Assembly (NCBI GenBank): GCA_015233145.1
Contig: JADFYI010000005.1
Coordinates: 16,872-80,871 of the forward strand
Direction of reading: 5' to 3'
Length of the DNA stretch: 64,000 nucleotides
Origin: Candidatus Omnitrophota bacterium
GTDB lineage: Bacteria; Omnitrophota; Gorgyraeia; Zapsychrales; Fredricksoniimonadaceae
The translations under genes and the position numbers were made by a program. This document shows positions 25,867 through 50,667 of this stretch, piece after piece. The stretch's first letter is position 1, and each line of letters starts with the position of its first letter. The notes beneath the pieces were generated by a model, which was not told where the DNA came from, did no database searches, and saw only the letters and a program-made list of their open reading frames with translations.

Positions 25867-27036
25867 CTAGTTAGCGCGCTTGCCGCAGAGGTGGACTTTA
25901 GTACCATAGATTTTCTCTATCTGTGTCGCAGGCGTCATGCTCAGGTCTTCGTCATTGATATCAAAACTGGCTCTCGGCAAGATGATTTCTTCTGGCCGAG
26001 GGCCTTTATTGTGAAGGAAAAATTCTTTAACCGCGGCCAAATAATCCTCCACAAGCAACAGGCCTGCGCAGTCAACGTTTCCTGCGAAAACTTGAGATTT
26101 AACCATGTGGGATCCGTCATTTTCCATTCCTAAAGACTTTAATACGCCTGGAAAAACATTGCGGACGCTGGCAGGATAAAGGAATAACTTTCTTCTTTTG
26201 GAAAAATTTCTTTTGTCTTTCATCAAATTTCTAAGACTTTCTGAAATATCTTTGTTCATGTCAGTATCAGACATCGCAAAGCCATAACTGATATTGGCAG
26301 AGTATTTCTTTTTAAGGAAGAGGCAGTATTGATGAAGGAAATTATCGGGAACTGATAATTCTTTAATGACATGAGCAGGGGTATACTTCGTGTAACCGGG
26401 GCGATGTACCACGATTTTTGTAGTGTTGATTTCTGTTAAATTTCTGACTGTCGCTTCAAAATCTCCGGAAGTGATGCTTTGTTTTAAAGGGACAAGGAGT
26501 ATCAAGTGGTGGATTTTATATTTTTTTAACAGGCTCAGCGTAGCGATGGCATTTTGATGTTTTTTTTGCGTTCCACCCATGATTTTTGTTCTATGGGAAA
26601 TGTTAGTTGTGTGCAAAGAAACATGTAAACATAAATTCAATTCTTTAATTATTTCGAGCTTTTCTTCTGTCAATTCCATGGCGTTGGTGAAAGTGATCAT
26701 GTTATTGCATTCAACGCGTTTCTTTTGAACCAACAGTTTGAGGACATCCATAACATGGGGATGACAAAAAAATTCTCCGGAATTAACATGGATGGCCGAG
26801 CCTATCCATGCGGGACTTTTCAAATGCCTGTCCATGAAATGTTCGATTTCTTCCAGCGTCAGCATCCTGTTAAGATGCTTGAGGACATGGGGCGGGTTCC
26901 ATTTTTGAGAGCAAAAAAAGCAATTTGCGCTGCAGACATCGCCGAGAGTAATGATGCCGTTTTGAAAATCTTTTTTAAACGCCTCATAGACGTCGGCCGG
27001 CATGGAAAGTTTTGATTCCGCTCGAGAAAGGCTCAT
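25867..27036 (-). CDS. Radical SAM protein with DUF512-like C-terminal domain
   Basis: CSANCFFC (CxxxCxxC) near the N-terminus. C-terminal VFAGNVDCAGLLLVEDYL resembles the DUF512 G..V.V.GLL.G.D motif. The gene is visibly AT-rich. Confidence 0.6.
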   Translation of the reverse strand: MSLSRAESKLSMPADVYEAFKKDFQNGIITLGDVCSANCFFCSQKWNPPHVLKHLNRMLTLEEIEHFMDRHLKSPAWIGSAIHVNSGEFFCHPHVMDVLKLLVQKKRVECNNMITFTNAMELTEEKLEIIKELNLCLHVSLHTTNISHRTKIMGGTQKKHQNAIATLSLLKKYKIHHLILLVPLKQSITSGDFEATVRNLTEINTTKIVVHRPGYTKYTPAHVIKELSVPDNFLHQYCLFLKKKYSANISYGFAMSDTDMNKDISESLRNLMKDKRNFSKRRKLFLYPASVRNVFPGVLKSLGMENDGSHMVKSQVFAGNVDCAGLLLVEDYLAAVKEFFLHNKGPRPEEIILPRASFDINDEDLSMTPATQIEKIYGTKVHLCGKRAN

Positions 27037-27676: not shown

Positions 27677-28249
27677 ATGGATAAACCACCGCTAACAACC
27701 GGTGAAATTGCCCAATATTGTCACGTCACAGACCGCGCTGTCTTAAAATGGATTGATGAAGGAAAGCTTAAGGCCTACCGCACCCCAGGTAACCATAGCC
27801 GTGTGAGTATTCATGATTTTATTGCCTTTTTGAAGGAATATAAGATGCCTATTCCTGAGGAGTTACAGGAAGGCAGTACACAAAAGAAGGTTTTAATCGT
27901 TGATGATGATAAAGAAATGGTTAATGCGATACGGCGTGTCATTTCTTCCCAAAATCACTTCCAGGTTGATATTGCCTATGACGGCTTTATGGCAGGGCAG
28001 AAGTTTGCTGAATTTAAGCCTGATTTGGTCCTTTTGGATATTAAAATGCCAGGAATCGATGGCTATGAGGTTTGCCAGCGCATCCGCAAAGACCCTGACA
28101 GCAAACACGTTAAAATCATTGTGATATCAGGCGCGCTTGATATGGACGGGATGGAGCGGATCATGCAACTCGGCGCAAATGATTATTTGACAAAACCTTT
28201 TCGTAATGAATTCTTGATCATGAAAGTTGAGAGAGTTTTAGGCCTTTGA
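27677..28249 (+). CDS. Hybrid regulator: excisionase/MerR-type HTH + REC domain
   Basis: LTTGEIAQYCHVTDRAVLKWIDEGKLKAYRTPGNHSRV, then VLIVDDD, LVLLDIKMPGIDG, KPF. Confidence 0.7.
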   Translation: MDKPPLTTGEIAQYCHVTDRAVLKWIDEGKLKAYRTPGNHSRVSIHDFIAFLKEYKMPIPEELQEGSTQKKVLIVDDDKEMVNAIRRVISSQNHFQVDIAYDGFMAGQKFAEFKPDLVLLDIKMPGIDGYEVCQRIRKDPDSKHVKIIVISGALDMDGMERIMQLGANDYLTKPFRNEFLIMKVERVLGL

Positions 28250-28279: not shown

Positions 28280-29044
28280 ATGTTCCCATCTGCTGACGTC
28301 CTTTCTTTTGACCGAGTTCCTCCCACAGTTTTTATTCGAGATGACGATGTCTGGACTCCTGATAGCGTTTTTAAGGAGCTTTTGGGTTTTTTGAAAAAAC
28401 AAAAAATCCCGGTGATTTATGGCATTATCCCTGATCGCCTTGAAGAGGCCATGGTTCGTCTCCTTCGCAAAGAAAAAAAGCAGCACCCGGGATCTCTTGA
28501 TATCGTTCAACACGGGTTCGCTCATAAAAATTATGGCGAGGGCATGGCCAAGTATGAGTTTGGCCAAAGACGGTCCTATCACGATCAGCATGACGATATC
28601 CTCAAAGGGCTTACCATCATGCGCAGGCGTTTTGCACAGTATTGGACCCCGGGATTTATCCCGCCCTATCATGGTTATGATAACAACACCTTAAAAGTTA
28701 TTCGGTCGTTAAAAATCCCTCTTTTTTCATCAGGGGCGAGGGTCGTTTGTGATCAAAAGACTTTTATCGACCTTCCAGCCGCGATATCTTTAAATGAGTA
28801 TGATGCCAACAGCACGCCGAAGCCTTTTGATTTTCGCCATATGCTGAACACAACCTTAAGAACGTTGCGGCCGGGCAAGGTTTTTGGCATGGTTTATCAT
28901 CACCGCGCCATTAAGACAGAGTCGGATATGCGGGCCATTAAAATGTTTTTGCGTCTTTTGGCAGATTGGCGAGCTCAAAAAGAGCTTAGAATCGTGCTTT
29001 TTTCTGATATTTTAGAGGGATTTTCAAAAGGCGTTTCCTTTTAA
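28280..29044 (+). CDS. Polysaccharide-deacetylase-like (DUF2334-type) protein
   Basis: VFIRDDDV and DIVQHGFAH motifs in the order expected for NodB-like metal sites. Confidence 0.4.
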   Translation: MFPSADVLSFDRVPPTVFIRDDDVWTPDSVFKELLGFLKKQKIPVIYGIIPDRLEEAMVRLLRKEKKQHPGSLDIVQHGFAHKNYGEGMAKYEFGQRRSYHDQHDDILKGLTIMRRRFAQYWTPGFIPPYHGYDNNTLKVIRSLKIPLFSSGARVVCDQKTFIDLPAAISLNEYDANSTPKPFDFRHMLNTTLRTLRPGKVFGMVYHHRAIKTESDMRAIKMFLRLLADWRAQKELRIVLFSDILEGFSKGVSF

Positions 29045-29094
29045 AGAACTTGAAATAAAGTCTTAATAATATATACTTTTAATAATAATAAGCG

Positions 29095-29529
29095 TTGATG
29101 ATAAAAAGGGCAGGAGAGAATGTTATGCAGAAAAATTTGGTTAAAGTCAATGGTTGGGGCAAGCTGTCCGTAAAAACAAAAATATATCCATTGCAGACGA
29201 TTTATTCCGCCGGGTATGTTTTTATGGACAAGGCTTATATTTATCTTGATGAGGGGGGTAAGGACAGCGTCGCGGTGTGGCTTCTCCCGAAAGCCAAGGG
29301 AGTCAAAGTTGAACAATTGGCGTTGGAATTTTCTCAAGAATTGCTAAATTACGCCCATTATTTCTCGAGCCTTAAGGCCAATGCCGAGAGCGTAAAGATT
29401 CTTTTACAGCGCGCGCTTTTTTCAGCTTCTCCGTCGTTAGTTCAGGAGGCGGAGGAAAAGGAAATCAAAGACCTGATCGCTGAATTGGAGCAGGAAGAAG
29501 TGAAGGAAAGCAAAAAGGGGAAGAAATGA
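29095..29529 (+). CDS. hxsD: HxsD-like small protein (His-Xaa-Ser system), copy 1
   Basis: Position directly upstream of the rSAM pair. Pattern IYPLQTIYSAGYVFMDKAYIYL...ALEFSQELLNYAHY. Acidic/Lys tail. An internal start at MQKNLV is possible. Confidence 0.4.
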   Translation: MMIKRAGENVMQKNLVKVNGWGKLSVKTKIYPLQTIYSAGYVFMDKAYIYLDEGGKDSVAVWLLPKAKGVKVEQLALEFSQELLNYAHYFSSLKANAESVKILLQRALFSASPSLVQEAEEKEIKDLIAELEQEEVKESKKGKK

Positions 29530-29750
29530 CTCTGCCTTTTTTGAAAAAAGACAAAGCAGGAACTTGTGTGGAGCTTTCCAAGTCCTTTTATCCTGAAAAA
29601 GCTATAAGCCGTTTTAAGGAAATATATGGCGAGGAGCTTTTTTCAGTCAATGACCAGGGACGCTGTTTTCTGGTTCGGCTGAAACATGGCTCTGAATACG
29701 ACTTTTTAGAAGCGCTTAACCATCTTTTATATTTTGCCAAGAATGCCTGA
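29526..29750 (+). CDS. HxsD-like small protein, copy 2 (paralogue of the preceding ORF)
   Basis: Shares the FYPEKAI...FLVRL...FLEALNHLLYF pattern with copy 1. ATGA overlap with copy 1. Confidence 0.35.
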   Translation: MTLPFLKKDKAGTCVELSKSFYPEKAISRFKEIYGEELFSVNDQGRCFLVRLKHGSEYDFLEALNHLLYFAKNA

Positions 29751-30687
29751 CCAAGCGAACCAATGTTATACTTGTGGTGCGAGGCGTGTTGCCATTTTTG
29801 TAGGTTACAGTTGCAATAACAATTGCCGGTTTTGTGTTGTTGCCGACAAGCGTAGTTTTGCAGACAGGACCACAGAACAAATTCAAAAGGAGCTTAAAGA
29901 GGCCTATGCCGGAGGGGCACGGCAGGTTGTTTTTACCGGCGGAGAGTGCACCCTCAGGAAAGACATTTGCGGTTTGGTTTCTTTTGCTAAAAAGACAGGT
30001 TTTCCTTCCGTTCAAATTCAGACGAACGGGCGTTCTTTTTCATCCATGGAGTTTTGCAAAAAGATCCTTTTGGCAGGGATGTCGGTGTTTGCCCCTTCTT
30101 TGCACGGGGCTACGGCAGATTTGCATGACGAGTTGACATGCAAAAAAGGGAGTTTTCGTCAGACCGTGTTGGGGATTCATAACGTGCGCAAGCTTACCAA
30201 AGGCAAGCTGCCGATTCTGACCAACACCGTTATTGTCAAAAAGAATTACCGCTTTTTACCGGAAATTGCCAGGCTTTTGGCCGGCCTTGGGGTTTATCAA
30301 ATGCAGTTTGCTTTTGTGCATGCCCAGGGGAATGCCGGCCGGTTTTACAAGAGCGTTGTGCCGCGTAAGACCGATGTGGTGCCGTATGTCACAGAAGCGC
30401 TGGACATTGCGATTCGCGCGAAGATCGGCGTCATGACTGAGGCGATACCGCCGTGCCTCTTGAAAGGATACGAGAAATATATTGCCGAACCAGGCATCCC
30501 TTCAACGGAGGTCAGGGAGCAGGGCCGGCTGGTTGAGCGTTTTGAGGATGTCAGGATGCATGAGGCCAAGATAAAATTTCCTCAGTGCCGGCGCTGTCGA
30601 TATGATTCGATATGCGAGGGGCCCTGGAGAGAGTATCCGGTATTTTATGGAAATAAAGAGTTTCAACCGGTAACGATAAAAAAATGA
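29734..30687 (+). CDS. hxsC: His-Xaa-Ser system radical SAM maturase, HxsC-type (B/C assignment tentative)
   Basis: CNNNCRFC, FTGGECTL, QIQTNG, and a C-terminal CRRCRYDSIC. Translationally coupled on both sides. Confidence 0.6.
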   Translation: MPRMPDQANQCYTCGARRVAIFVGYSCNNNCRFCVVADKRSFADRTTEQIQKELKEAYAGGARQVVFTGGECTLRKDICGLVSFAKKTGFPSVQIQTNGRSFSSMEFCKKILLAGMSVFAPSLHGATADLHDELTCKKGSFRQTVLGIHNVRKLTKGKLPILTNTVIVKKNYRFLPEIARLLAGLGVYQMQFAFVHAQGNAGRFYKSVVPRKTDVVPYVTEALDIAIRAKIGVMTEAIPPCLLKGYEKYIAEPGIPSTEVREQGRLVERFEDVRMHEAKIKFPQCRRCRYDSICEGPWREYPVFYGNKEFQPVTIKK

Positions 30688-32090
30688 AAAAAACAAAAGA
30701 TTTTGTCATATTGCCGTTTAATTCGGCCAGGCTAAAAAACAAGTACCTGGTTTCCAATGTGCTTGGCGCATGGGACTTTCTGGGACCCGCTGAGTTTAAG
30801 CAATTCAGTGCTTTCGGGTTTTCCAAAGAATCTCCGTTTTTTTCAAGGCTGAAAGAGCGGGGGCTGGTGGCGGATGATTCGAACATCCAGTCGGTTATTG
30901 AAAGCTTTCGCAATACCAACGAGAATCTTTTTCTGGATACATCACTGCACATCGCGGTTGTGACAACCCGGTGCAATTTAAGCTGTTCTTATTGCCAGGC
31001 CAAGACGCCGCACCCCAAGGACATGTCTTATGAGGTGGCCGCGCAGGTTTTAAAGTATATGTTTGACGTGCGCAATCCTTCCGTGACTTTGGAGTTTCAA
31101 GGCGGCGAGCCGCTCTTAAATTGGCCGGTTGTCAAGTTTATGATCGAGAGTGCCAGAAAGATCAACACGACGGGCAAGAACCTTAAGATCACCATTGTCA
31201 GCAATCTTTTGCTTCTTGATGAAGAAAAGATGAAGGTTTTGGCAAAACACAATGTGGATGTTTGCACGTCTTTGGACGGCCCCCAGAAGATCCATGACAC
31301 AAACAGGATTTCCGCAGGCGGTCAGGGTACTTATCAGCAGGTTGTTCGAAAAATCAAAATTTTTAAAGATAAATTCGGAAAGTCGGTCAGCCTTTTACCA
31401 ACCATCACAAAAGATTCTCTAAAAAATCCCAAAGCCATTATCGATGAATATGTAAAATGGGGGCAGAAAGAGATTGCCCTGCGGCCTGTGAATAATATGG
31501 GCACCGCGTCTTGTTCATGGGCAAGCCTGGGGTATTCTCCTGAGGAATTCTGCGATTTCTACAGCCAGGCCATGGAGTATATTTTAAAATTCAATCAAGA
31601 GGGCATTTTTATCAGGGAGCGCACGGCAAACCTTATTTTGACAAAAGTCCTGGCCAAAAAGGACCATCGCTATGTGGACCTTTTGAGCCCCTGCGGCGCA
31701 GGCCGGCTGGTCATGGCCTATATGCCTGACGGCAGCTGCTATCCTTGCGATGAGGCACGCATGTTGAATGAAGACATGTTCAAGCTGGGGAATATTTTGA
31801 ATGAAAAATATGATGACATGATGAAGAAGGAAAATCTTTTACACTTGCTGGAAGCATCGTGTTCCAATTTGTGGAATTATGCCTCTGTTTACAGCCCCTG
31901 GATGGGGGTTTGCCCGGTTGTGAATTATGCGCTCCAGAAAAACGTTATTCCAAAGGTCGCCTGTTCGCCGATGCAAAAAATATTAACGTTTCAGTTTGAG
32001 TATATTTTTGGGAAAATCCTTAGTGGTGGGGATGTTCTTAAAACATTTAACCGTTGGGTTGAAGGAGAAGGCTATGGCCAAAAAAAATAA
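30684..32090 (+). CDS. hxsB: His-Xaa-Ser system radical SAM/SPASM maturase, HxsB-type
   Basis: CNLSCSYC, FQGGEPLL, SPASM block CGAGRLVMAYMPDGSCYPCDE...LGNI. Immediately precedes the His-rich peptide gene. Confidence 0.65.
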   Translation: MKKTKDFVILPFNSARLKNKYLVSNVLGAWDFLGPAEFKQFSAFGFSKESPFFSRLKERGLVADDSNIQSVIESFRNTNENLFLDTSLHIAVVTTRCNLSCSYCQAKTPHPKDMSYEVAAQVLKYMFDVRNPSVTLEFQGGEPLLNWPVVKFMIESARKINTTGKNLKITIVSNLLLLDEEKMKVLAKHNVDVCTSLDGPQKIHDTNRISAGGQGTYQQVVRKIKIFKDKFGKSVSLLPTITKDSLKNPKAIIDEYVKWGQKEIALRPVNNMGTASCSWASLGYSPEEFCDFYSQAMEYILKFNQEGIFIRERTANLILTKVLAKKDHRYVDLLSPCGAGRLVMAYMPDGSCYPCDEARMLNEDMFKLGNILNEKYDDMMKKENLLHLLEASCSNLWNYASVYSPWMGVCPVVNYALQKNVIPKVACSPMQKILTFQFEYIFGKILSGGDVLKTFNRWVEGEGYGQKK

Positions 32091-32370
32091 TTTCCCCAGG
32101 AAGAGCGTCCCTCAGTTCAAGAAATCTGTCAAAGATTTTCTGGCCGATGAGGACGGATTTGTGAGCAAGGAAACAATTCTTAAAGTGGGCCTGACAACCG
32201 TGGCAGGAATTGGCATGTTGGGTGCGATGTCTTCCGTTGGCAATGCCGGACATACGAACCATACAAGCCATAGCAATGCCTTGGCGTCTAACAATCCGCC
32301 GGCGGGACAATCGTGCGTAACTGTTTCACATAATAATTTTACGCCGCACACGAGTCATTCGTCATATTAG
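32074..32370 (+). CDS. hxsA: His-Xaa-Ser repeat precursor-like peptide (98 aa)
   Basis: GAAGGAGAAG RBS precedes ATG 32074. C-terminal GHTNHTSHSNA...SHNNFTPHTSHSSY. The track start at 31996 would overlap hxsB by 95 nt. Confidence 0.65.
   Translation: MAKKNNFPRKSVPQFKKSVKDFLADEDGFVSKETILKVGLTTVAGIGMLGAMSSVGNAGHTNHTSHSNALASNNPPAGQSCVTVSHNNFTPHTSHSSY
32251..32277 (+). repeat. Three tandem 9-nt units CATACGAAC/CATACAAGC/CATAGCAAT encoding HTN-HTS-HSN; a second patch HTS-HSS lies at 32347-32364
   Basis: Read directly from the sequence, in the hxsA frame. Confidence 0.8.
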
Positions 32371-32391: not shown

Positions 32392-33129
32392 ATGAAAAGG
32401 CTTTTTTCTTTCGTCTGCGTATTTACTTTTTTAATGGCGTTTGCTGTTTATGCTCAATATAGCGATGGTTCGGATCAAAAAAAGGAGGACGCCCAGGTGC
32501 AGGCCGAGGACTCTCAAGACCAGCCATTTTTAGAGCAATTGAAAGCTTATGTGGCGGTGGCCAAAGATGACGTTTCCTTTTGCACGGGGCGGGTTTGCAA
32601 GGACAGGGCTGAAAGGATCCTTCAATTTAGGAATTTTGGAGAAGGGAAATGCAGCCAAGTTGTGGAAAACATGCGGGACCATTGCGAAAAATTCAAGTCG
32701 CACAGTTGCGCTGCATTTGCCGAGCCTAATGAGCAGGAAATGTGTCAGGGGCGTTTTCCTGGCAGTGTCGATGCCCTTTCGACAGTGCAAAAGAATTATA
32801 ATATGGAATCTCTCGAAGAGCTGGCCATGAGTTTTTCTGTTATCTTAGGGTACCAAAAGCATGATTCCGGTGCCTGTGAAAAACTGGTGACAAAATATAT
32901 ATCCAGCAAAAAACCGGAATATTTTTCTTGCAGCATCCTTTTTTCTTCAGATCCTCAGAGGGCCTTTGAAAAAATCGAAGCTGATTTTAAGCTTGTTGAC
33001 CTTGCCCGAAAAAGAAACGATTCCGAGATCTGCAAGCAAATCAAAGATCTGGCCGTTATGCAGGAATGCTACAGGCAGCCTTTTCAATCCAGGGCTGATG
33101 ACACGGCTTCCGATTCTGACAGAAAGTGA
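32392..33129 (+). CDS. Secreted Cys-rich protein (245 aa), unknown function
   Basis: Signal peptide MKRLFSFVCVFTFLMAFAVYA. Ten mature-region Cys residues in paired C-x(n)-C units. Acidic N- and C-termini. Confidence 0.5.
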   Translation: MKRLFSFVCVFTFLMAFAVYAQYSDGSDQKKEDAQVQAEDSQDQPFLEQLKAYVAVAKDDVSFCTGRVCKDRAERILQFRNFGEGKCSQVVENMRDHCEKFKSHSCAAFAEPNEQEMCQGRFPGSVDALSTVQKNYNMESLEELAMSFSVILGYQKHDSGACEKLVTKYISSKKPEYFSCSILFSSDPQRAFEKIEADFKLVDLARKRNDSEICKQIKDLAVMQECYRQPFQSRADDTASDSDRK

Positions 33130-34707: not shown

Positions 34708-36012
34708 TTGGCTTTTGTGAGCCTGGAAAAATTTTTGAAGATATTGCGTTTGGGGGGGGTAAACGTTTCAGAAAAGTTTTTCTCTATATTTCTAAACGTT
34801 CCATCCCGGGCCGTTGACCGGCAGATGCTGGATGTCTTACATAAACTTTTAAATGTTTACGGCCAATCTTATTTTATTGTTATTAAGGGGCTGCCTCCGT
34901 GTCTTTTCCCTCAGGCCCATGAACGGATTGTTTATGCGCGCCAAAAAGGAAAAATCTACCGGCGAATTCCTTCTTGCGGACAATGCCGGTTAAAACGCCA
35001 GTGCCCTGGCTGGTCTCATGACCTTAACCTGCCGCAGGAGGATATTCAGTCGATTGCCGACATCCCTTCAGAAATTGTTTTAGAAATTACTGGCCGATGC
35101 AACCTGTCGTGCGGCCATTGTACAAGCGCAATACAAACTGTGCGCCAGGTTCCTTTGAGAACCATCAAAACAATCCTTAACCAGGCCCATAGATGTCGTG
35201 TCCCTGCCGTACGATTTACCGGCGGGGAGCCTTTGCTTCATCCTGATCTTGCGGAAATCCTTTCTTATGCCAAGGCCCGGGGGTTTTATGTGCTTCTCAA
35301 TACTAACGCCACATTATTGACGCCTTCTTTTTTAAGACTTTTCTCAAGGTCCGTTGACAACGTCCTTGTCTCTTTACAGGGTTTTGACAGCGCCTCTGAC
35401 CAGGCGCTTACTCATTCAGCGGTTTCTTTTGAGAGGAAGTTGCAAAATATTTTTCTTTTGCAATCGTATGTTCCTACCATGCGCCTGGGGACCGTTATAA
35501 CACCGCTATTATTGGAGCATTGGCCGCGTTATGCGGCTCTGATGAAAAGAATAAAGCCATCTGCGTGGGAACTTTTTCGCCCCATGAGTGGCAGTGCCCG
35601 TCAGGAGCCTCCATTGACCAGGAAAGATTACCGCGAACTTTCCTTGAGGGTGTTGTCACTGAAAAAAGAGGGTATTAACGTCAAGCTCGCGAATGCGTTG
35701 CCGTTTTGTGTTTTGTCGAATTTGAGGCTGTCGGCAGCCCTGATGCTGGGGGCTCTTTCCGATGACGGCAACTCACGGCTTGTATGGGATGTGCGTGGTT
35801 TTTTTAAACCGAGTTATTTCATTGATAAGAATTTGGGAAAAAGTGTGATGCCCGCCTGGAGGCATTTATTCTTAAAGAAGTTAAAAAGCTCCGCTTATTT
35901 ACCAAAGCGATGCCAGGAGTGTGAATATTGGAGCTGGTGCCGCGGGGGGAGCCGCGCGATAGCTCTACAAGGCAATCATTCTTTTTTTGCCGCGGATCCT
36001 TTATTCGATTAA
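34708..36012 (+). CDS. Radical SAM protein with ~125-aa N-terminal extension and SPASM/twitch-like tail
   Basis: EITGRCNLSCGHC, FTGGEPLL, LNTNATLL. N-terminal CGQCRLKRQC and C-terminal CQECEYWSWCRGG. Non-ATG start (TTG 34708 or GTG 34717). Confidence 0.8.
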   Translation: MAFVSLEKFLKILRLGGVNVSEKFFSIFLNVPSRAVDRQMLDVLHKLLNVYGQSYFIVIKGLPPCLFPQAHERIVYARQKGKIYRRIPSCGQCRLKRQCPGWSHDLNLPQEDIQSIADIPSEIVLEITGRCNLSCGHCTSAIQTVRQVPLRTIKTILNQAHRCRVPAVRFTGGEPLLHPDLAEILSYAKARGFYVLLNTNATLLTPSFLRLFSRSVDNVLVSLQGFDSASDQALTHSAVSFERKLQNIFLLQSYVPTMRLGTVITPLLLEHWPRYAALMKRIKPSAWELFRPMSGSARQEPPLTRKDYRELSLRVLSLKKEGINVKLANALPFCVLSNLRLSAALMLGALSDDGNSRLVWDVRGFFKPSYFIDKNLGKSVMPAWRHLFLKKLKSSAYLPKRCQECEYWSWCRGGSRAIALQGNHSFFAADPLFD

Positions 36013-36866
36013 CGATGCACGATCATGATCAACCAGGTTAACAGGGGCGTATAGCTTAAAATGCACCCCAAAAAGAGAAGCGGCGCAAAGGGCACCCTGT
36101 CTTTGGAGTTTGTTACGCTTTTGGTGACAGAGTTGACGGAGTTATTGATGACGGCATAAAGAAAAATCATCCCCAGATAGACCAGCCAATTCGGCCAGAA
36201 AAAGAATTGGGGGGAAAAATGGGCCCGAAGGGTAACCCCTAAGATAAAAACAATAATGGCGACTGCCGGATATTTCAGGGATGAATGGATTGCTTTAAAG
36301 AAGATATTGATCAAAAGGTATAAAATAAGAAAAGATAAGAACCCGTATTGCGCTATTTGGAGTTTACTGAGGAGCGGAAAGGTTATCCAGGAAAGGCATA
36401 AACAGATGAGGACTGTTTTTTTGATTTCTTCACGTGTCTTTCGGGCGATTATTTTGAGAAAAATTCTTTTTCGGTAAAAAAGAGCATTTTTGATAATGTC
36501 AGGGATAAGAAGCACGAACCCGGCCATAAATGTGCAGGTAAAAAGGACAAGTGCGGGGACCGGCAATAAAAGTTCATATCCTGTCTTTGGCATAAGAAAA
36601 GAGTAAAGGATGAAGAGCTTCGCGTCGCCGGCTTCCCAGAATTTCTGCCAGTAGCAGAACGTAGAAATGGCAAGGGCGACCCCCAAGCTCGATAATGCGA
36701 AAAGCGGGAGTTCTTTCCGAAGGAAAAAAATAGATATTTGGAGAATTAATCCGGCCGCAAAAAGGAAGATCAGATGATTGTTCCGGACTTTTCTGAACGC
36801 GAAGTCAGTTGTGCTTGTTAAAATGCCTGTGAGGATAATAAGACCGAAGGAAATGTATATTAACAT
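36009..36866 (-). CDS. A24-family prepilin peptidase homologue (CpaA/TadV-like, no methyltransferase domain)
   Basis: Polytopic membrane protein. First Asp context TSTTDFAFRKVRN and second Asp in WEAGDAKLF (GxGD-type). C-terminal VPFAPLLFLG. Confidence 0.65.
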   Translation of the reverse strand: MLIYISFGLIILTGILTSTTDFAFRKVRNNHLIFLFAAGLILQISIFFLRKELPLFALSSLGVALAISTFCYWQKFWEAGDAKLFILYSFLMPKTGYELLLPVPALVLFTCTFMAGFVLLIPDIIKNALFYRKRIFLKIIARKTREEIKKTVLICLCLSWITFPLLSKLQIAQYGFLSFLILYLLINIFFKAIHSSLKYPAVAIIVFILGVTLRAHFSPQFFFWPNWLVYLGMIFLYAVINNSVNSVTKSVTNSKDRVPFAPLLFLGCILSYTPLLTWLIMIVHR

Positions 36867-36929: not shown

Positions 36930-37805
36930 GTGGTAATTTATCCCGAGATTCCGGCAACGTTATTGCCGCTTTTTAAATATTTTAAGCTCAAGGCCTCTGA
37001 CCAGACGGGGCAAATATTGAAAGAATTTATCACGTTAGAAAATTGGCCTAAAAAAGGTTTTGAATTTTCCAGTGATTCAGCTGAGGAAAAGGGAAGGGCG
37101 TATCTTCGCGCCGCGTTTTCGTGTTTAAAGCGCGAAGAAATTTTGAGGCTGTTTTCTCATACAAAATTTCGCGCGTCAGACCTTGACGGGCTTATGTTCG
37201 AGAATTCTGTTGATCCATGCTTTGGCATGGGGATCGCCGATTACAAAGACACAAAAGAGGATGCCCGCTTCAAGCTCTACAGTGTTTATCTTGATGCACA
37301 AAAAAAAGTGGACCAGGTAAAACACATACATGATGTCTGTAAAAGGATCGGTCTTGATTTTTCTCTGGTAGGCAAGGACCTTGATTCTTTTAAGGAGATG
37401 CGGGCCTGCTCTGTGGACCTTTATGACAATGGCGTTACGGGATTAAAATTATATACCCCGTTTCTTCAGACAGAGGATATTTTGGGCCAGTATAGCTCAG
37501 TATTTGACAAATCCACATTGCACAAGTATGAAAAATTACTGCACACGGGGATTCTTCCGGAAACTTTTTTGTTTTGTATTAGGTACGGCCATTCGCTGAG
37601 GTCGGCTCGTACCGATTTTTCCTACAGGACAACGCAGGTGGCTCCTTATTTGCAGGCATTTGATTTAAGCGGAGCAGCCACCCGGTTATATCAGGAATTA
37701 TTAATGGTTATTCCGACAATAAGGCTGGCCTATATTAGTATGGATTTGGATAAAAGACTGAGAACTCAATTCTATTTTGAAGGGACGCCGCAGACCAGTG
37801 ATTAA
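36930..37805 (+). CDS. Hypothetical protein; possible ABBA-type (PatF/Orf2-like) prenyltransferase fold
   Basis: Four spaced strand motifs of the form D-x(n)-[RK]-x-[KQ]-x-Y: GIADYKDTKEDARFKLYSVY, SVDLYDNGVTGLKLYTPF, RTDFSYRT, SMDLDKRLRTQFYFEG. GTG start. Confidence 0.3.
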   Translation: MVIYPEIPATLLPLFKYFKLKASDQTGQILKEFITLENWPKKGFEFSSDSAEEKGRAYLRAAFSCLKREEILRLFSHTKFRASDLDGLMFENSVDPCFGMGIADYKDTKEDARFKLYSVYLDAQKKVDQVKHIHDVCKRIGLDFSLVGKDLDSFKEMRACSVDLYDNGVTGLKLYTPFLQTEDILGQYSSVFDKSTLHKYEKLLHTGILPETFLFCIRYGHSLRSARTDFSYRTTQVAPYLQAFDLSGAATRLYQELLMVIPTIRLAYISMDLDKRLRTQFYFEGTPQTSD

Positions 37806-38748
37806 TCTTGAATTGACCAATTATTGTAATTTTTCGTGTGAATATTGCCCTTCCCGCTGGATGACAAGAAAAAAGGGGAAAATGAGCTATCGCCTGGCCG
37901 TTAAGATTATCCGGGAATTAGCAGGGCAGGGCACGGAGAGTGTGATGACTTTTCATGTGATGGGAGAGCCCTTGTTGCATCCTGACTTTGAGAAAATATT
38001 ACGTTTTGCCAAACAAAAAGGATTGACGACTGTTTTGGTTACCAATGGCAGTCTTTTGCCCCGGGCTTTCACCGCCAGGATTAGACCGTATTTAGATTGC
38101 CTTATTATCAGCGTGACTTCAGATTCGAAACAGGTTCATGAGAGGAGAAAATCAGGGATCAGTCTTGAACATTACCGTTTGATTGTCAAGGAGGCGGTGG
38201 CCGGGCTTCTGGGCTCCTCAACGCATGTCCTTTTGTTATATCTTGATCAGTTGTCATCGCGGTCAGGAAAATCCGGGCAAGAAAAGATCGCCGGGGGGTG
38301 GCGGGAATTTCTTGTAAAAGAAAGAAGAGACTCTCCTAAGAAAAGTAAAGCCCCGGGTCGATCAAAAATGCTATTTATTAATCAATGGAAAAAAAGCCGC
38401 AGGGCGCAGACCTTTAAGTTGTTTTCTAATGTGGAGGCTGTATTTTTACCGGTATCTTTTTCCTGGGCTGGCCTCTATTCCGGATCTGGAAAACATCAAG
38501 CAGGGCATTGCCCGGATTTCTTAGAAACGCTCAGTATTTTATGGGATGGAAAAGTAACGATTTGCTGCGGAGATTATGATGGCCGCATGGCTTTGGGAAA
38601 TGTCACAAAAAGTTCGCTTAAAGACGTGCTTCAAGGCAATCAGGCATTGATTCAGAAGATGGCAAGCCTTAACAAGAAGAATTTATTATACGCTAGGGTC
38701 TGTCAAGGGTGTTTTAGCCCTTCTCAAGGCAGGAAGGGGGCGCTGTAG
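37777..38748 (+). CDS. Radical SAM/SPASM-domain protein
   Basis: LTNYCNFSCEYC, VMGEPLLH, VTNGSLL. SPASM-like CPDF...WDGKVTICCGDYDGRMALGNV...CQGC. Confidence 0.8.
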   Translation: MKGRRRPVINLELTNYCNFSCEYCPSRWMTRKKGKMSYRLAVKIIRELAGQGTESVMTFHVMGEPLLHPDFEKILRFAKQKGLTTVLVTNGSLLPRAFTARIRPYLDCLIISVTSDSKQVHERRKSGISLEHYRLIVKEAVAGLLGSSTHVLLLYLDQLSSRSGKSGQEKIAGGWREFLVKERRDSPKKSKAPGRSKMLFINQWKKSRRAQTFKLFSNVEAVFLPVSFSWAGLYSGSGKHQAGHCPDFLETLSILWDGKVTICCGDYDGRMALGNVTKSSLKDVLQGNQALIQKMASLNKKNLLYARVCQGCFSPSQGRKGAL

Positions 38749-40169
38749 TGTTCGTTAGTTTGCGCATGGATGATCCTGTTCAATCGATAGGCCATTCGTT
38801 TAAGTTTGATGCTGTGGGCAAGGATGTTGCGGTCTTTATTCTTGATCCTCGGGGGTTGCCTTTAGGGTTGGATGCCAAAGAGGTTTTGAAACTTTACCGT
38901 GAATATGGATTGAAAGCCCTGCCATTGATATGCCGTAATTATGCCGTGGCCCTGTGTGATTTTCGAAAAAAAAGGTTTGTTCTGGCGGTTGATCAGATCG
39001 GGCATGCCACATTTTATTATAAGGTCATCGGCGATAAATTTTTTGCGGCATTAGATTTAAAAGCGTTATGCCAAGAATATTTGCCGGAAGTCAGCCGCGA
39101 AGCCTTAAAGATGTATTTTTCTTGCGGCTTTATTCCGGGTCGTAAAACAATATTTGAAGGCATCCAAAAGATTGCTCCCGGTGAATATTTATCTATTGAG
39201 AATGGACGAATGATTGTTGCGCAGTATGTTGTCCCTGATATACGCCCTGTGCGTAGCGGTAAAAAGGAATCAGGAGAGAATTTGCGCAGGGGGTTAATGC
39301 GTTCCATGGAGGCGACTCAGGGGGTTCCCGTGGGGGTGATGTTTAGCGGAGGTTTTGATTCGTCTTTGTTATGCCACCTGGCACAGCAGTATAACCGGAA
39401 ATTAAAGGCCTACACGGTGAGTGTTCAAGGATATAATCAAGAGACTATCTTTCAGGCCCGGCAGGCAGCGGGTTTTTTGGGTGTTCGCCATGAGGTTGTT
39501 GAGATAAAAATGAAGCAGTATGTTTCGGCATTCTCTTCGGTCTTTGAAAAATTGAATGAGCCGGCTTTTTTACCTTATCTGGCGGTAGCTCATGCTGCTT
39601 TTTCAGGGATACCTCAAGGTGTGAAATTTCTATTCTCAGGGATGGGCAGTGATGAGTTGTTGGGCAACAGATTTTCAAAATCCAGAGGTTTTCTTAAGAA
39701 TATTATGTCTTTCAAGGAGTATCATTCGCTGAGGAATTTGAATAATGGCGAACGAGTGGCCTGGTCTTTGTACGCGAGGGTTGCTGCCAGCCTTCGGTCT
39801 TACCATCGGCTTTCTCAAGGAGCTGGCCGGCACATTGTTTTTCCTTTTTTGGATTCCGGGGTTATGGAGGTTGTTCAAAAAATACCCGGGTCATGTCGTC
39901 AGGATAAAAAACTTTTACGGTCATTGGCGCCCGATTTAGATGCGTTCTTTTTGCTTTCTCCCCGCAGGGATGCGGAGCAATTGTCGCCAGTCTTGACCGG
40001 CGCCATTGCCGGGTTTTATCGTGAGAAAATAAGGGAGAACAGGGCGTTGGCATCATTGTTTGGAGAGAAAAGAATGAAGGAGCTTTCGCGCGCCGGTGCC
40101 AGGGAAGATATCCTCAAGTGCGCTGTCTTTGATTTATGGTCCAGAAAAAATTTTCCTGGTTTGGCCTAG
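38748..40169 (+). CDS. Asparagine-synthetase-like adenylating enzyme without the N-terminal Cys nucleophile
   Basis: PP-loop VMFSGGFDSSLL and GMGSDELLG. The N-terminus MFVSLRMDD lacks the MCG glutaminase start. GTG start overlaps the upstream stop (TAGTG). Confidence 0.7.
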   Translation: MFVSLRMDDPVQSIGHSFKFDAVGKDVAVFILDPRGLPLGLDAKEVLKLYREYGLKALPLICRNYAVALCDFRKKRFVLAVDQIGHATFYYKVIGDKFFAALDLKALCQEYLPEVSREALKMYFSCGFIPGRKTIFEGIQKIAPGEYLSIENGRMIVAQYVVPDIRPVRSGKKESGENLRRGLMRSMEATQGVPVGVMFSGGFDSSLLCHLAQQYNRKLKAYTVSVQGYNQETIFQARQAAGFLGVRHEVVEIKMKQYVSAFSSVFEKLNEPAFLPYLAVAHAAFSGIPQGVKFLFSGMGSDELLGNRFSKSRGFLKNIMSFKEYHSLRNLNNGERVAWSLYARVAASLRSYHRLSQGAGRHIVFPFLDSGVMEVVQKIPGSCRQDKKLLRSLAPDLDAFFLLSPRRDAEQLSPVLTGAIAGFYREKIRENRALASLFGEKRMKELSRAGAREDILKCAVFDLWSRKNFPGLA

Positions 40170-40216
40170 GAACTGCTGGTCAGGCGGCAGTAGTTTATTA
40201 AAAAATTAAGACCGGA

Positions 40217-41164
40217 TTGGATGGTATGGTTGCCCAAAAAAAACAGCGTGTTTTAGTCGTGGGGTGCGGCTGCCTGGGGAAGTGGATGGCGGCGCATTTT
40301 TCTAAAGGGACGCAAGTTTTTTGTTACGAATCCAACAAGGGCATTGTGCGCTCTGTTACAAGGAAAGGCCTTTTCCTGATTGAGAACCAACAGAAACAAA
40401 GAGCCAGGGTCAGTATTACGGATAGGCTGGAGCGGTATTCAGGCTGTTTTTTTGATTTGATAATTTTTTCAACAAAATGCTTTGATGTTTTAAAGGCGAT
40501 AAAACAGGTTTCAAAACACGTTAAGGCAGACGGGGTGCTTTTTTTACAGAATGGCAGTTTCCCTTTGGATCAGGCGAAAAAGGCATTTAAAGGCTCAAGT
40601 ATTTTTCGAGGCGTGACAACATCTGCCATAACATCGCGAGGCGATGCGGGCGCGGAAGTTTTTTTTCACGGGAAATTGTACTGGGGGAGTTATGGCAAGC
40701 CATTGAAGAGCGGTTTTGACTTATCACGGGCTTTAAAGAGTGCCGGTATTGATGCGCGTGAAGCCAGTGATTACCGGGGTGCCTTGTGGGCAAAACTTAT
40801 TTTTAGCGCGGTGATGAACCCGTTGCCGCTTTTGACCGTGGCCGATTACAGCATTTTACAGAAAGATGACAAGGTTTATTCTTTTGTAACTCAGGCCATA
40901 GATGAAGGAAAAAAAGTGGCCCGGGCCAGGGGCATCACCCTGGCATTTGATCCTATGACTATTGTACGGAAATTACGGAGAGGGAAACTGGGCCAGTTTC
41001 ACCACAAGGGTTCCATGTATTATGACTTTATCGAAGGCCGCAGGACAGAACTGAATGACATTACGGGTGAGCTTGTGCAATGTGCCCGTAGGGCCGGGAT
41101 TATGGCGCCGGCGCTGGAAACGATTTATACTTTAACTGCAGCGAAGGAAGCTGGCCGTCTTTAA
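40217..41164 (+). CDS. 2-dehydropantoate 2-reductase (ApbA/PanE) family oxidoreductase
   Basis: VLVVGCGCLGKWMA Rossmann motif. ALWAKLIFSAVMNPL and ELNDITGELV in the C-domain. Confidence 0.6.
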   Translation: MDGMVAQKKQRVLVVGCGCLGKWMAAHFSKGTQVFCYESNKGIVRSVTRKGLFLIENQQKQRARVSITDRLERYSGCFFDLIIFSTKCFDVLKAIKQVSKHVKADGVLFLQNGSFPLDQAKKAFKGSSIFRGVTTSAITSRGDAGAEVFFHGKLYWGSYGKPLKSGFDLSRALKSAGIDAREASDYRGALWAKLIFSAVMNPLPLLTVADYSILQKDDKVYSFVTQAIDEGKKVARARGITLAFDPMTIVRKLRRGKLGQFHHKGSMYYDFIEGRRTELNDITGELVQCARRAGIMAPALETIYTLTAAKEAGRL

Positions 41165-41218
41165 GAGCGCTGAATTCTTTGGAAAGCGCGATTTATTAAT
41201 TTTTTTTGGAGCAGGTTT

Positions 41219-42397
41219 GTGCTTAAGAAGGAAAAAGAAATCTTTGAGAAAGTCTCCCGGTTGCTTTCGCATTTCCGCAGGTTTGATAAGCGGTATCAGG
41301 GGATAAAATTACCTCTAAAAACATGGCAGGATTTTAGGGCTGTTTCCATCGTATCCAAGGAGGATCTTCGGGGTTATTCGGTGTGCAAGCCTTTTAACAT
41401 AACGGCGACATCGGGCTCTACAGCAACCCGTCTTTTGATTGCCCATTCCAGGGGGTGTTATCAGGCGCATATCCACAGGCTTGTCACGCTTTATCAAAGT
41501 GTCGGCATTTCTCAGGATGACCTTTGCCTGAATTTGTGTTCCTACAGCCTTAATAGCGGTGGACGTATGATGGAGGCGGCTTATAAGGCCGCTGGAGCAG
41601 GGGTTATTCCGTTGGGGGTTTTGGATTCTGGTGCCAAAACCCGGGAGGCTGTGGATTTTGTTCGAGAACTGCGTCCGACAGTCGTCAATTCTTATACCAA
41701 TCAGTTGTTTGATTTTTTTTCCCTTTTGGGGCGCAGGCATTCTATCCGCATGGCTATTGTGAATGGAGAGCCTTTGACAAAGCCTTTTAAGGCCAGGATC
41801 GAGGCAATGTCGGGAGTGAAAGTTTACAATCATTACGGCGCCATGGAATTCTCCGGCTTTGCAGTGGCCCAAAAGCATACGGATGAGTATATGAAAGTTT
41901 TTGATAATGGGCTTTTTATTGAAGTGCTTCGCGATGACGGCACGGTATCATCGACAGGAGAAGGGGCTGTTTTGATAACGGATTTAGGAAACACATCAAT
42001 GCCGTTTATCCGTTACAAGCTGGGAGACAAAGTTGAGGTGAGAGCCCGCCGAGACGGAATGTATGTCAAGGTTTTGGGAAGGCTGGCAGATTCAGTTTTG
42101 ATTGACGGGGAAGTTTATTCAATTTCTGAAATAGCTGCCCAGGGGCAAAAGGGCCTCAAGCACCCGCATTTCTTTTTTGTAATCAATAAAGATCAGGGGA
42201 CTTACGCTGATAAAGTTATTTTGAATTTGCCGGGTTCTGATATGCCGCGTTTCAACGAGATCAAGTCTTTATTCAAGAAGAGTTTTTCCTTTGGAAATAG
42301 TTTAGATATCCGTTCATATCAAGGGGAGTTTCCTAAAACGACAACAGGTAAGTTCAGACATGTCATTGATTCCCGAAAGAATTCTGAGAAGGCCTAA
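41219..42397 (+). CDS. PaaK/CapK/F390-synthetase-like adenylate-forming ligase
   Basis: TATSGSTATRL (TSGTTG-like), NHYGAMEF, and a C-terminal TTTGKFRHVIDSR lysine motif. Confidence 0.6.
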   Translation: MLKKEKEIFEKVSRLLSHFRRFDKRYQGIKLPLKTWQDFRAVSIVSKEDLRGYSVCKPFNITATSGSTATRLLIAHSRGCYQAHIHRLVTLYQSVGISQDDLCLNLCSYSLNSGGRMMEAAYKAAGAGVIPLGVLDSGAKTREAVDFVRELRPTVVNSYTNQLFDFFSLLGRRHSIRMAIVNGEPLTKPFKARIEAMSGVKVYNHYGAMEFSGFAVAQKHTDEYMKVFDNGLFIEVLRDDGTVSSTGEGAVLITDLGNTSMPFIRYKLGDKVEVRARRDGMYVKVLGRLADSVLIDGEVYSISEIAAQGQKGLKHPHFFFVINKDQGTYADKVILNLPGSDMPRFNEIKSLFKKSFSFGNSLDIRSYQGEFPKTTTGKFRHVIDSRKNSEKA

Positions 42398-46722: not shown

Positions 46723-46734
46723 ATTTTTATCAGG

Positions 46735-48428: not shown

Positions 48429-48480
48429 AACAGTTTAGCATTGATCATAGGTCTTGGGAAATATTAAGAGGTGGCTTTTT

Positions 48481-50648: not shown

Positions 50649-50667
50649 GAGGCACGGGGAGTATTTC

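Follow-up and report, generated by a model that had tools for sequence, protein, structure and literature searches.

The hxsD-hxsB-hxsC-hxsA genes of Escherichia coli were described in 2026 as a broad antiphage system that blocks the entry of phage DNA (PMC13128918). HxsB, HxsC and HxsD are all required for the N-terminal processing of the precursor HxsA (about 211-214 amino acids, aa), which carries a +8 Da modification on its last His-Xaa-Ser (HxS) repeat, SHRSS; HxsC forms a complex with HxsD (PMC13128918). Mature HxsA is held in the periplasm through its peptidoglycan-binding domain, its basic HxS repeats have been proposed to bind DNA, and mutation of C399/C402 of HxsB reduces HxsA processing and abolishes antiphage defence (PMC13128918). 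The gene order is D-B-C-A in 99.6% of the systems, and 99.7% of them were found in Pseudomonadota (PMC13128918). Here we report on a related five-gene cassette, D1-D2-C-B-A, found at positions 29095 to 32370 of a 64,000-nucleotide stretch (hereafter the window; GenBank assembly GCA_015233145.1, contig JADFYI010000005.1) from a metagenome-assembled genome (MAG) of an uncultured Candidatus Omnitrophota bacterium. Judged by its sequence, the cassette is an Omnitrophota-specific divergent version of the HxS radical S-adenosylmethionine (rSAM) system. On balance we lean towards a mechanism in which its prepilin-like precursor is cleaved by a prepilin-type (A24) peptidase encoded nearby. The original prediction, made from the letters of the window, had recognised an HxS cassette and held that such cassettes had no experimentally established function; the latter statement is outdated, given the antiphage activity in E. 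coli (PMC13128918). Beyond the 2026 paper, nothing was found in the literature on HxsA3, HxsC4 or a link between rSAM enzymes and prepilins. The cassette is laid out as follows.

29050..29077, + strand: promoter-like site TTGAAA-16-TATACT directly 5' of D1 (10/12 consensus matches, a pattern match only)
29095..29529, + strand: D1, homologue of HxsD whose C-terminal extension is conserved and charged (144 aa as called; 134 aa from ATG 29125)
29526..29750, + strand: D2, HxsD_rel-like small protein (74 aa; ATGA overlap with D1)
29734..30687, + strand: C, short HxsC-like rSAM enzyme (317 aa)
30684..32090, + strand: B, HxsB rSAM maturase with a degenerate SPASM domain (468 aa; ATGA overlap with C)
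32074..32370, + strand: A, HxS-tailed precursor (98 aa; 17-nucleotide (nt) overlap with B)

The five translationally coupled open reading frames (ORFs) were all found with the predicted overlaps, and so were the motifs that had been read in them: CNNNCRFC at residues 27-34 of C; CNLSCSYC at residues 97-104 of B, followed by CGAG...MPDGSCYPCDE...GNI; and, in A, a tail ending ...GHTNHTSHSN...SHNNFTPHTSHSSY with six H-x-[S/T/N] triplets. The likely start of D1 is ATG 29125, which has a GGAG ribosome-binding site 7 nt upstream and at which the orthologues begin too. C and A are 100% identical to NCBI proteins, the NCBI start of C being at 29743, three codons downstream of the called one, and an AAGGAG ribosome-binding site precedes the start of A (ATG 32074). 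Window proteins looked up by exact sequence gave no match. The identical gene set, in the same order, is present in many independent Omnitrophota contigs, so the cassette is not a chance arrangement.

As in the canonical HXS system, the cassette encodes two rSAM enzymes, an HxsD-type small protein and, in the last position, an H-x-S precursor. In both cases this precursor appears to be directed to the envelope, its N-terminal region is probably removed, and the last repeat is the best-conserved site (SHSSY in the window, SHRSS in E. coli). The terminal position of the precursor gene, to which attention had been drawn, is in fact the canonical one, found in 99.6% of the systems and also on a Klebsiella plasmid with the order hxsD(79)-hxsB(462)-hxsC(370)-hxsA(211). 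The differences lie elsewhere. In the window, C precedes B and two small proteins are encoded instead of one. The precursor is of 98 aa rather than about 211, has one conserved Cys and no basic residues in its tail, and carries a prepilin-like motif where canonical HxsA has a 22-aa Sec signal. Finally, the system belongs to Omnitrophota, as compared to the 99.7% reported from Pseudomonadota.

Family membership was tested against the NCBIfam models, whose cutoffs are given here in brackets. B matched the equivalog model TIGR03978 HxsB over its whole length (396.8 bits, E 1.2e-118, profile 1-466 of 466; cutoff 370). D1 matched TIGR03976 HxsD with 30 bits (E 5e-7, profile 2-86 of 90; cutoff 50), and it carries VAVWL and ELLNYAHY, akin to the HxsD motifs LYW and LLNDYxLRE; precomputed annotations assign PF27806:HxsD to D1 orthologues in four other contigs. 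The best match of C was HxsC4 NF038332 (175.5 bits; cutoff 500), followed by TIGR03977 HxsC (96 bits; cutoff 267.9). A matched HxsA3 NF038309 end to end (44.3 bits, 2-81 of 81; cutoff 65), with its orthologues scoring 16.6-50.5 bits, and gave no match with TIGR03979 HxsA (cutoff 121.65). The best match of D2 was HxsD_rel NF038315 (13.7 bits, E 0.055; cutoff 41). No unrelated NCBIfam family outscored the Hxs models for any of the proteins; for B, the next-best families (PapB, SCIFF maturase and others) reached 112-144 bits, all far under their cutoffs. Pfam detected in the cassette only Radical_SAM, Fer4_12 and SPASM domains. The predicted HxsD/C/B/A signature is therefore borne out at the level of the family, with B over its cutoff, and not at the level of the HxsD, HxsC and HxsA equivalogs, which scored under their cutoffs or did not match. 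Likewise, the search with TIGR03976-TIGR03979 that had been suggested as a check returned HxsB and no better unrelated family, and the other three of the four models failed their cutoffs. Since the cassette belongs to the Hxs family and yet fails most equivalog tests, we regard it as a divergent variant.

For comparison, 5 genome and 80 metagenome loci were gathered, together with several context look-ups, and scored with hidden Markov models built from the window proteins and the orthologues of the first related loci. About 61 loci, some of them duplicates, are of the Omnitrophota type, and further ones are HxsA4-type or more distant. The HxsA4-type loci, retrieved with the same B protein, are bona fide Hxs systems (A 64-97 bits against the HxsA4 NF038313 cutoff of 55, HxsD 59-63 against 50, HxsB 480).

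A consists of a basic leader, the sequence DEDG28|F29VSKE33, a hydrophobic segment (34-52), Cys81 and the C-terminal SHSSY98. We found 160 homologues, every named one of which is an Omnitrophica hypothetical protein, and computed the motif statistics on the best 120 of them. The leader measures 23-49 aa and carries a net charge between +1 and +10. The proposed cleavage site is preceded by DEDG in 118/120 and by DEEG in the other 2, so that Gly(-1) is invariant; Phe(+1) is present in 117/120 and Glu(+5) in 120/120. The hydrophobic stretch that follows covers about 20 residues (mean Kyte-Doolittle 1.39 over +6 to +25) and is broken in the window peptide by Lys37. His, Ser, Thr or Asn account for 55% of the tail, which contains exactly one Cys in 104/120 peptides and no Lys or Arg in 95/120, and ends in Tyr in 118/120, mostly as HTSY or HSSY. 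Pfam detected no peptidoglycan-binding domain in A.

Type IV prepilin (class III) signals are characterised by Gly(-1), Phe(+1) and Glu(+5) ahead of a hydrophobic helix. A conforms to this pattern with its basic leader, Gly(-1), hydrophobic +1 residue, Glu(+5) and hydrophobic helix, and it resembles type IV prepilins and Flp pilins in having Phe(+1) and about 20 mostly hydrophobic residues. The predicted mature size of A, about 60-70 aa, is comparable to that of Flp pilins. In a scan of the 4927 ORFs of all loci, the prepilin-like motif turned up in 28 A peptides and in just 3 further ORFs, one of which is an ordinary pilin; A is for this reason the sole recurrent candidate substrate in the neighbourhood. 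The short-precursor variants HxsA3 and HxsA4 share with A the basic leader, the FLxxE(E/D)G motif, the hydrophobic segment and an HxS tail with an aromatic end. HxsA4-type peptides, in whose homologous leader the motif reads FLSSEEG, differ in having (GSH)n repeats, Lys(+1), no acidic residue at +5 and a clear ASA|Q site.

Two further observations concern precursors in other loci. In L062 (7347-7894) and L065 (1221-1754), two tandem, diverged A-type precursor genes follow a single B gene, and their tails end in NCY or SG, not in HxSY. On the Methylobacter plasmid NZ_CP091425.1 (L091, 4295-4567), a 90-aa "hypothetical" protein with a Sec signal and the end HYSHRSHSSHSSHSSHVSSRY is encoded upstream of hxsB-hxsC; this signal and tail mark it as an unannotated short HxsA. 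In the same locus a secreted thermonuclease gene follows hxsC (7549-8265), and nuclease and ATPase genes flank the locus.

Two conserved neighbours of the cassette lie downstream of A.

34708..36012, + strand: rSAM434, three-cluster-type radical SAM enzyme (about 435 aa), a conserved neighbour in 15/22 loci
36009..36866, - strand: putative aspartyl membrane peptidase of 285 aa, a divergent member of the A24 (prepilin-type) family by alignment with its relatives
36920-36893: strong promoter-like site by the A24-like gene (pattern match)

A24 peptidases are recognised by a match to PF01478 and by two catalytic aspartates, of which the second lies in a motif of the GxGD type. In the A24-like family the residues T20-D21, N29, H31, W77, G80-D81 and K83-L84-F85 are invariant, along with PFAPF near the C-terminus. 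The window copy, 23-34% identical to 16 relatives, has the invariant D21 and G80-D81-A-K-L-F. Pfam Peptidase_A24 (PF01478) matches 15/17 family members at a permissive listing threshold of E<=10, with a best E of 4.1e-11, and precomputed "Peptidase_A24 (weak)" matches occur in two further loci. A PDB profile search with the A24-like family gave chance matches only. The protein resembles PilD, TadV/CpaA and FlaK, being a membrane protein with the two A24 aspartate motifs whose relatives match PF01478. It differs from these prepilin peptidases in forming a divergent subfamily of 285-300 aa that is coupled to an rSAM gene and not to a methyltransferase domain.

Neighbours were counted over 22 loci of the Omnitrophota type, those in which the downstream sequence extends for 5 kb or more. 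The A24-like gene is present in 17/22, although the B proteins of these loci are only 45-70% identical. It is present in 0/8 of the HxsA4-type or more distant loci whose flanking sequence is long enough, namely seven HxsA4-type loci and the Halothermothrix locus L009, where no HxS peptide is encoded. The main argument for cleavage of A by this peptidase is that the A24 neighbour co-varies with F(+1) and the acidic +5 residue, both of which are missing in the HxsA4-type loci. In most loci the A24 gene lies directly upstream of the rSAM gene, co-directional and overlapping with it. The rSAM434 protein has the invariant cysteines C65/C90/C93/C99, C131/C135/C138 and C334/C402/C405/C411. It gave no specific family match, and a RiPP (ribosomally synthesised and post-translationally modified peptide) recognition element (RRE) or PqqD-like domain was not detected by Pfam. 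Homologues of rSAM434 occur in the HxsA4-type loci L074 and L076-L078 as well. The Halothermothrix sp. MAG just mentioned (L009, 1927-11105) has a Firmicutes-type locus with genes for an HxsD-like protein of 125 aa, for HxsB and for an HxsC-like protein. After them come three peptidase genes of M16-family size, a further rSAM gene and a second copy of HxsB, and the scan found no HxS-rich peptide there.

The number of genes in the cassette varies among loci, and this variation suggests how the modifying proteins may be paired. D1, D2 and C were counted over the Omnitrophota-type loci with enough upstream sequence, and A over those with enough downstream sequence. D1 is present in 40/40 loci, D2 in 17/40 and C in 8/40, and A is present in 47/47. 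The architectures observed are D1-B-A, D1-D2-B-A, D1-D2-C-B-A (the form in the window) and C-D1-D2-B-A. In the neighbour-joining tree of B, the five-gene form is found in several deep sub-clades and the D1-B-A forms are derived clades. In L021 (5591-5919), all that is left of C between D2 and B is two fragments of 61 and 41 aa, a sign that an hxsC-like gene decayed there. The window therefore has the complete and probably ancestral form, from which C and D2 were lost repeatedly. The A tails vary in parallel. Loci with C have on average 6.5 His and 6.1 H-x-S/T/N triplets in the tail, those with D2 and no C have 4.7 and 4.1, and those with neither have 3.6 and 2.9. The repeat counts, the universal D1-B-A core and the invariant C-terminal HxSY suggest that D1 and B may modify the terminal repeat, and D2 and C the additional tandem repeats. 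In L021, which retains remnants of C only, the A tail still has 8 His.

The two small proteins proved to be different from each other. D1 has a charged extension of 50 aa with respect to canonical HxsD, and an extended HxsD is also found in short-precursor Hxs variants. The two had been taken for paralogues arising from duplication of the HxsD gene. This did not stand up to comparison, since BLASTP gave an E of 0.62 and hhalign a probability of 41% over 30 N-terminal columns, so we discarded a recent paralogy; the profile comparison supports remote relatedness at most. A phmmer search of 1.84 billion representative proteins gave about 13 representative homologues of D2, all of 73-82 aa, and a word-index search with D2 recovered D2 alone. 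HxsD_rel is the top weak match, in the same register, for 8/14 members of the D2 family (E 5.7e-4 to 0.16, at most 20 bits). The HxsD of the distant locus L087 matches both HxsD and HxsD_rel and thereby links the two families. D2 is best described as a putative remote HxsD-superfamily protein that forms a separate family, HxsD_rel-like, and is no duplicate of D1. The possibility that D2 is the detached N-terminal domain of canonical HxsC was also rejected (hhalign probability 0.1%, a comparison of low power with two canonical sequences only). The phmmer matches of D2 to large proteins (P0248, P0251, P0252, P0255, P0258 and P0259) are many repeated weak matches to eukaryotic C2H2 zinc-finger arrays; they are spurious, a compositional or repeat artefact and not homology. 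Single-sequence AlphaFold2 produced poor models of both proteins: a beta-alpha-beta-beta-alpha fold for D2 with a confidence score (pLDDT) of 65, and a D1 model with a pLDDT of 54.

C is 23% identical to Klebsiella HxsC. Its CxxxCxxC motif is at residues 27-34, as compared to 101-108 in the Klebsiella protein, and this shift means that C is devoid of the N-terminal domain of about 74 aa of canonical HxsC. The C-terminal CxxCx5C motif, which corresponds to C342/C345 in E. coli HxsC (PMC13128918), is kept (CRRCRYDSIC at residue 285, against CDECTQKSSC at 342 in Klebsiella HxsC). The homologues of C at 51-71% identity (L001, P0030, P0075, P0066) are all part of the five-gene form, and in P0030, P0075 and P0066 the order D1-D2-C-B-A is followed by an rSAM gene and an A24 gene, both on the - strand. 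Another homologue, P0046 (59% identity), adjoins a U32 peptidase gene, and relatives from DPANN archaea are found in other rSAM clusters. These rSAM proteins from outside Hxs contexts match HxsC4 and HxsC as well as the window C does. We considered that C might be a foreign rSAM enzyme recruited recently. This was rejected in view of the three further homologues in five-gene context, the broadly congruent trees of C and B and the C remnants in L021; repeated loss therefore explains the pattern better.

B is 26% identical to Klebsiella HxsB, and its rSAM cysteines are C97, C101 and C104. Like the SPASM/Twitch maturases (PapB, SCIFF, CcpM, anSME), it combines an N-terminal extension and an rSAM core with a Cys-rich domain at the C-terminus, but its Cys complement is reduced to a Twitch-like subset. 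In an alignment of 69 B proteins, the seven SPASM cysteines were kept as follows.

B of HxsA4-type and more distant loci: all seven
Canonical HxsB (Klebsiella, Methylobacter): 3, 4, 5 and 7 (the CxxCx5C...C site, which was mutated in E. coli)
Omnitrophota B, including that of the window: 1, 2 and 6
Omnitrophota B of the D1-B-A sub-clade (L006, L007): cysteines 2 and 6 also lost

In the window B the kept cysteines are C337, C355 and C410, and the CxxCx5C motif and the last cysteine are missing; CxxC(x5)C is also missing in 96-100% of Omnitrophota-type B proteins. The patterns of loss are complementary between lineages (window B; loci L072, L076, L082, L009, L090 and L091).

Other genes around the cassette recur in part of the related loci.

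27677..28249, + strand: response regulator with HTH_17 (MerR-like) and receiver domains (Pfam), two genes upstream of the cassette
28280..29044, + strand: DUF2334/polysaccharide-deacetylase-like protein (Pfam DUF2334 E 5.4e-12, Polysacc_deac_1), directly upstream of the cassette
32392..33129, + strand: dn245, predicted secreted Cys-rich protein with an N-terminal signal-like segment
53741..54967, - strand: GT28-like glycosyltransferase (Pfam Glyco_tran_28_C; phmmer 190 bits to the glycosyltransferase of L001)

The gene dn245 starts 22 nt past the end of A with no terminator-like site between them, and the two are probably co-transcribed. The dn245 protein gave no match in Pfam or NCBIfam; homologues directly follow A in L001, L011, L014-L017, L021, L027, L063 and others, many of them D2-containing loci. 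DUF2334 homologues are close to the cassette in L008, L021, L062, L067, L074, L077 and L078. The GT28-like family is represented in 12/22 loci, directly after A or dn245, and is displaced by about 21 kb in the window. GT28-like, DUF2334 and rSAM434-like genes are found repeatedly in loci of the Omnitrophota type and of the HxsA4 type alike. An orthologue of the response regulator (85% identity) occupies the same position in L001 only, among the related loci; it is a possible regulator of the cassette. A further radical SAM protein of 389 aa (25867-27036, - strand; Radical_SAM and Radical_SAM_2) has no homologue in the related loci.

Downstream, an island at 37777-53763 contains at least 9 further rSAM genes (with starts including 37777, 42360, 44208, 46735, 48454, 50668, 51792 and 52690) together with GT9, DegT aminotransferase, AsnB-like amidotransferase, AMP-binding-like, ketopantoate-reductase-like and carbamoyltransferase genes. 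Its make-up suggests a cluster for the tailoring of sugars or glycans, and it has no conserved place beside Hxs cassettes elsewhere. The link to the downstream rSAM genes that the original prediction had raised as a possibility holds only for the conserved neighbours rSAM434 and the A24-like gene and not for orf291, rSAM323, the AsnB-like gene and dn474, which have no counterpart in any related locus.

From gene content, family relationships, motif conservation and synteny we infer the following course of events. The operon D1-D2-C-B-A, probably with dn245, would yield the 98-aa pre-peptide, whose basic leader of about 28 residues and invariant FLxDEDG motif would be recognised by the maturation machinery in the cytoplasm. 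There, HxsB and its universal partner D1 would modify the conserved C-terminal H-x-S-Y, the presumed counterpart of E. coli SHRSS (+8 Da), and the optional D2 and HxsC-like enzyme would act on the extra tandem H-x-S/T repeats, which occur in loci that have D2 and C. The hydrophobic segment would then insert the peptide into the inner membrane, and the dedicated A24 peptidase encoded nearby would cut the leader at G28|F29. The resulting product of about 70 aa would have an N-terminal helix as anchor and a modified His/Ser/Thr-rich tail in the periplasm, possibly tailored further by rSAM434, the GT28-like glycosyltransferase and the DUF2334 deacetylase-like protein. Most likely, then, the product is an envelope-located, helix-anchored, rSAM-modified peptide. 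It would probably act in the envelope; a barrier to phage entry, by analogy with the peptidoglycan-anchored HxsA of E. coli, is one plausible role among several.

A number of points weigh against this mechanism, to which we nevertheless give somewhat more credence than doubt as a whole. D1, D2, C and A score below the curated cutoffs, and B is without the CxxC cluster motif that is needed for HxsA processing and defence in E. coli. No Pfam family, the pilin and N-methylation models (N_methyl, Flp_Fap) included, matched A at E up to 1, and the acidic DEDG ahead of the proposed cleavage site is atypical of prepilins. The window copy of the A24-like protein itself has no Pfam match. In the window, its gene and that of rSAM434 are convergent, with 3' ends overlapping by 4 nt, an arrangement that points to a local inversion in this genome. 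No genes for a pilus assembly ATPase or platform protein were found among the 30 Pfam-scanned window proteins or the called genes of the related loci. The leader motif recurs as SEEG in HxsA4 systems with no A24 neighbour, and may therefore be a mere recognition site for the maturase. The correlation with His counts and the synteny counts were obtained from loci that are phylogenetically non-independent. Finally, an [AVS]-x-A site, a permissive pattern, follows the hydrophobic segment in 91/120 A peptides, so that signal peptidase I could release a soluble peptide instead, which weakens the case for A24. This last possibility belongs to an orthodox antiphage interpretation. Here the peptide would be exported by Sec, cut by signal peptidase I at about A58|G59 and left in the periplasm as a soluble HxS peptide that blocks phage DNA, the A24 peptidase and rSAM434 being irrelevant. 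Homology to an experimentally characterised system and the HxsA4-type relatives, with their clear ASA|Q site and no A24 neighbour, speak for it. Yet it leaves the near-invariant F(+1) and the invariant E(+5) without a role, and it does not account for an A24 neighbour that persists in 17/22 loci across divergent B proteins. Moreover, A has neither the basic tail residues nor the peptidoglycan-binding domain on which the E. coli model depends, and the electrostatic DNA binding proposed for E. coli HxsA is therefore not transferable, a point that also weighs against the mechanism preferred above. With the auxiliary-cluster site missing from B as well, the E. coli mechanism cannot be carried over directly. 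In addition, the cassette is located in stable chromosomal synteny with housekeeping and glycan genes and not in defence-island or mobile contexts, and PADLOC, whose library is older than the HXS paper, returned only generic viperin-type rSAM similarity. We consider this interpretation unlikely, though it deserves attention before any other alternative.

An improbable alternative is that the rSAM enzymes cross-link a short His/Cys/Ser-rich core which, once the leader is removed, is set free as a RiPP-type metal-binding peptide (metallophore or chaperone) or signal, with no part in defence. The next-best families of B are indeed thioether- or cyclophane-forming maturases (PapB, SCIFF), the leader-core layout is conserved, and the His-rich tail has its single conserved Cys and its C-terminal Tyr. 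However, the conserved neighbourhood contains no usual RiPP exporter or leader-peptidase gene, and the conserved hydrophobic segment suggests a membrane or periplasmic fate. Furthermore, Cys is absent altogether from canonical HxsA and from the short HxS peptide of Methylobacter, which makes thioether formation an unlikely reaction for the family. Even less credible, in our view, is that the HxS/T tail serves as glycosylation substrate of a surface glycopeptide or pseudopilin, built with the GT28-like, DUF2334 and rSAM434 proteins and the sugar/rSAM island. The recurrence of the first three beside the cassette in both types of loci, and the GT9, DegT aminotransferase, carbamoyltransferase and many rSAM genes at 37-54 kb of the window, would fit such a role. 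Against it, most of the island, with the four genes named above, is found in no related locus, the glycosyltransferase is present in little more than half of the loci and displaced in the window, and there is no evidence linking these enzymes to a peptide substrate. As to the idea that the unit is non-functional, a chance overlap of ORFs or a set of decaying remnants, the scores of 4/5 cassette proteins under the curated family cutoffs could be cited in its favour. It is refuted by the conservation data (the same order in dozens of contigs whose proteins share 45-71% identity and have their catalytic motifs intact) and by the ribosome-binding sites, and we regard its probability as practically nil.

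What the variant adds to a known system is a prepilin-like precursor with a putative dedicated A24 peptidase. The short-precursor Hxs family of Omnitrophota, with its HxsA4-type relatives elsewhere, would be missed by an HxsA-based survey such as that in the sole functional study of HXS (PMC13128918). It also bears on several questions left open in E. coli. The pairing of enzymes and small proteins may be read from the fact that D1 always occurs with B and D2 travels with C; the assignment of repeats to enzymes from the repeat number, which tracks D2 and C; and the dispensability of Fe-S clusters from the complementary losses of SPASM cysteines between lineages. For N-terminal processing, the dedicated A24 peptidase is a concrete candidate. 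In practical terms, reconstitution in vitro may be far simpler with a 98-aa substrate that has a soluble tail, and with D1 and B as a minimal pair, than with E. coli HxsA, which is insoluble and of 211 aa; this could open up the +8 Da chemistry. Should the role of the cassette not be defence, it would caution against annotating all Hxs-like cassettes as antiphage.

A broader proposal, which we put forward tentatively and with more doubt than the mechanism itself, is that the HxsA-like peptides of Omnitrophota constitute an unrecognised class of rSAM-modified prepilin-like envelope proteins. An A24 peptidase dedicated to them and coupled to an rSAM gene would cut them at G|FxxxE, and the N-terminal helix would serve to anchor or to polymerise them. 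If this were true, they would be the membrane-anchored counterpart of the peptidoglycan-anchored antiphage effector HxsA, and the Hxs machinery would be an ancient, modular system for the maturation of envelope proteins that extends far beyond Pseudomonadota, with different lineages having kept complementary halves of the set of SPASM clusters.

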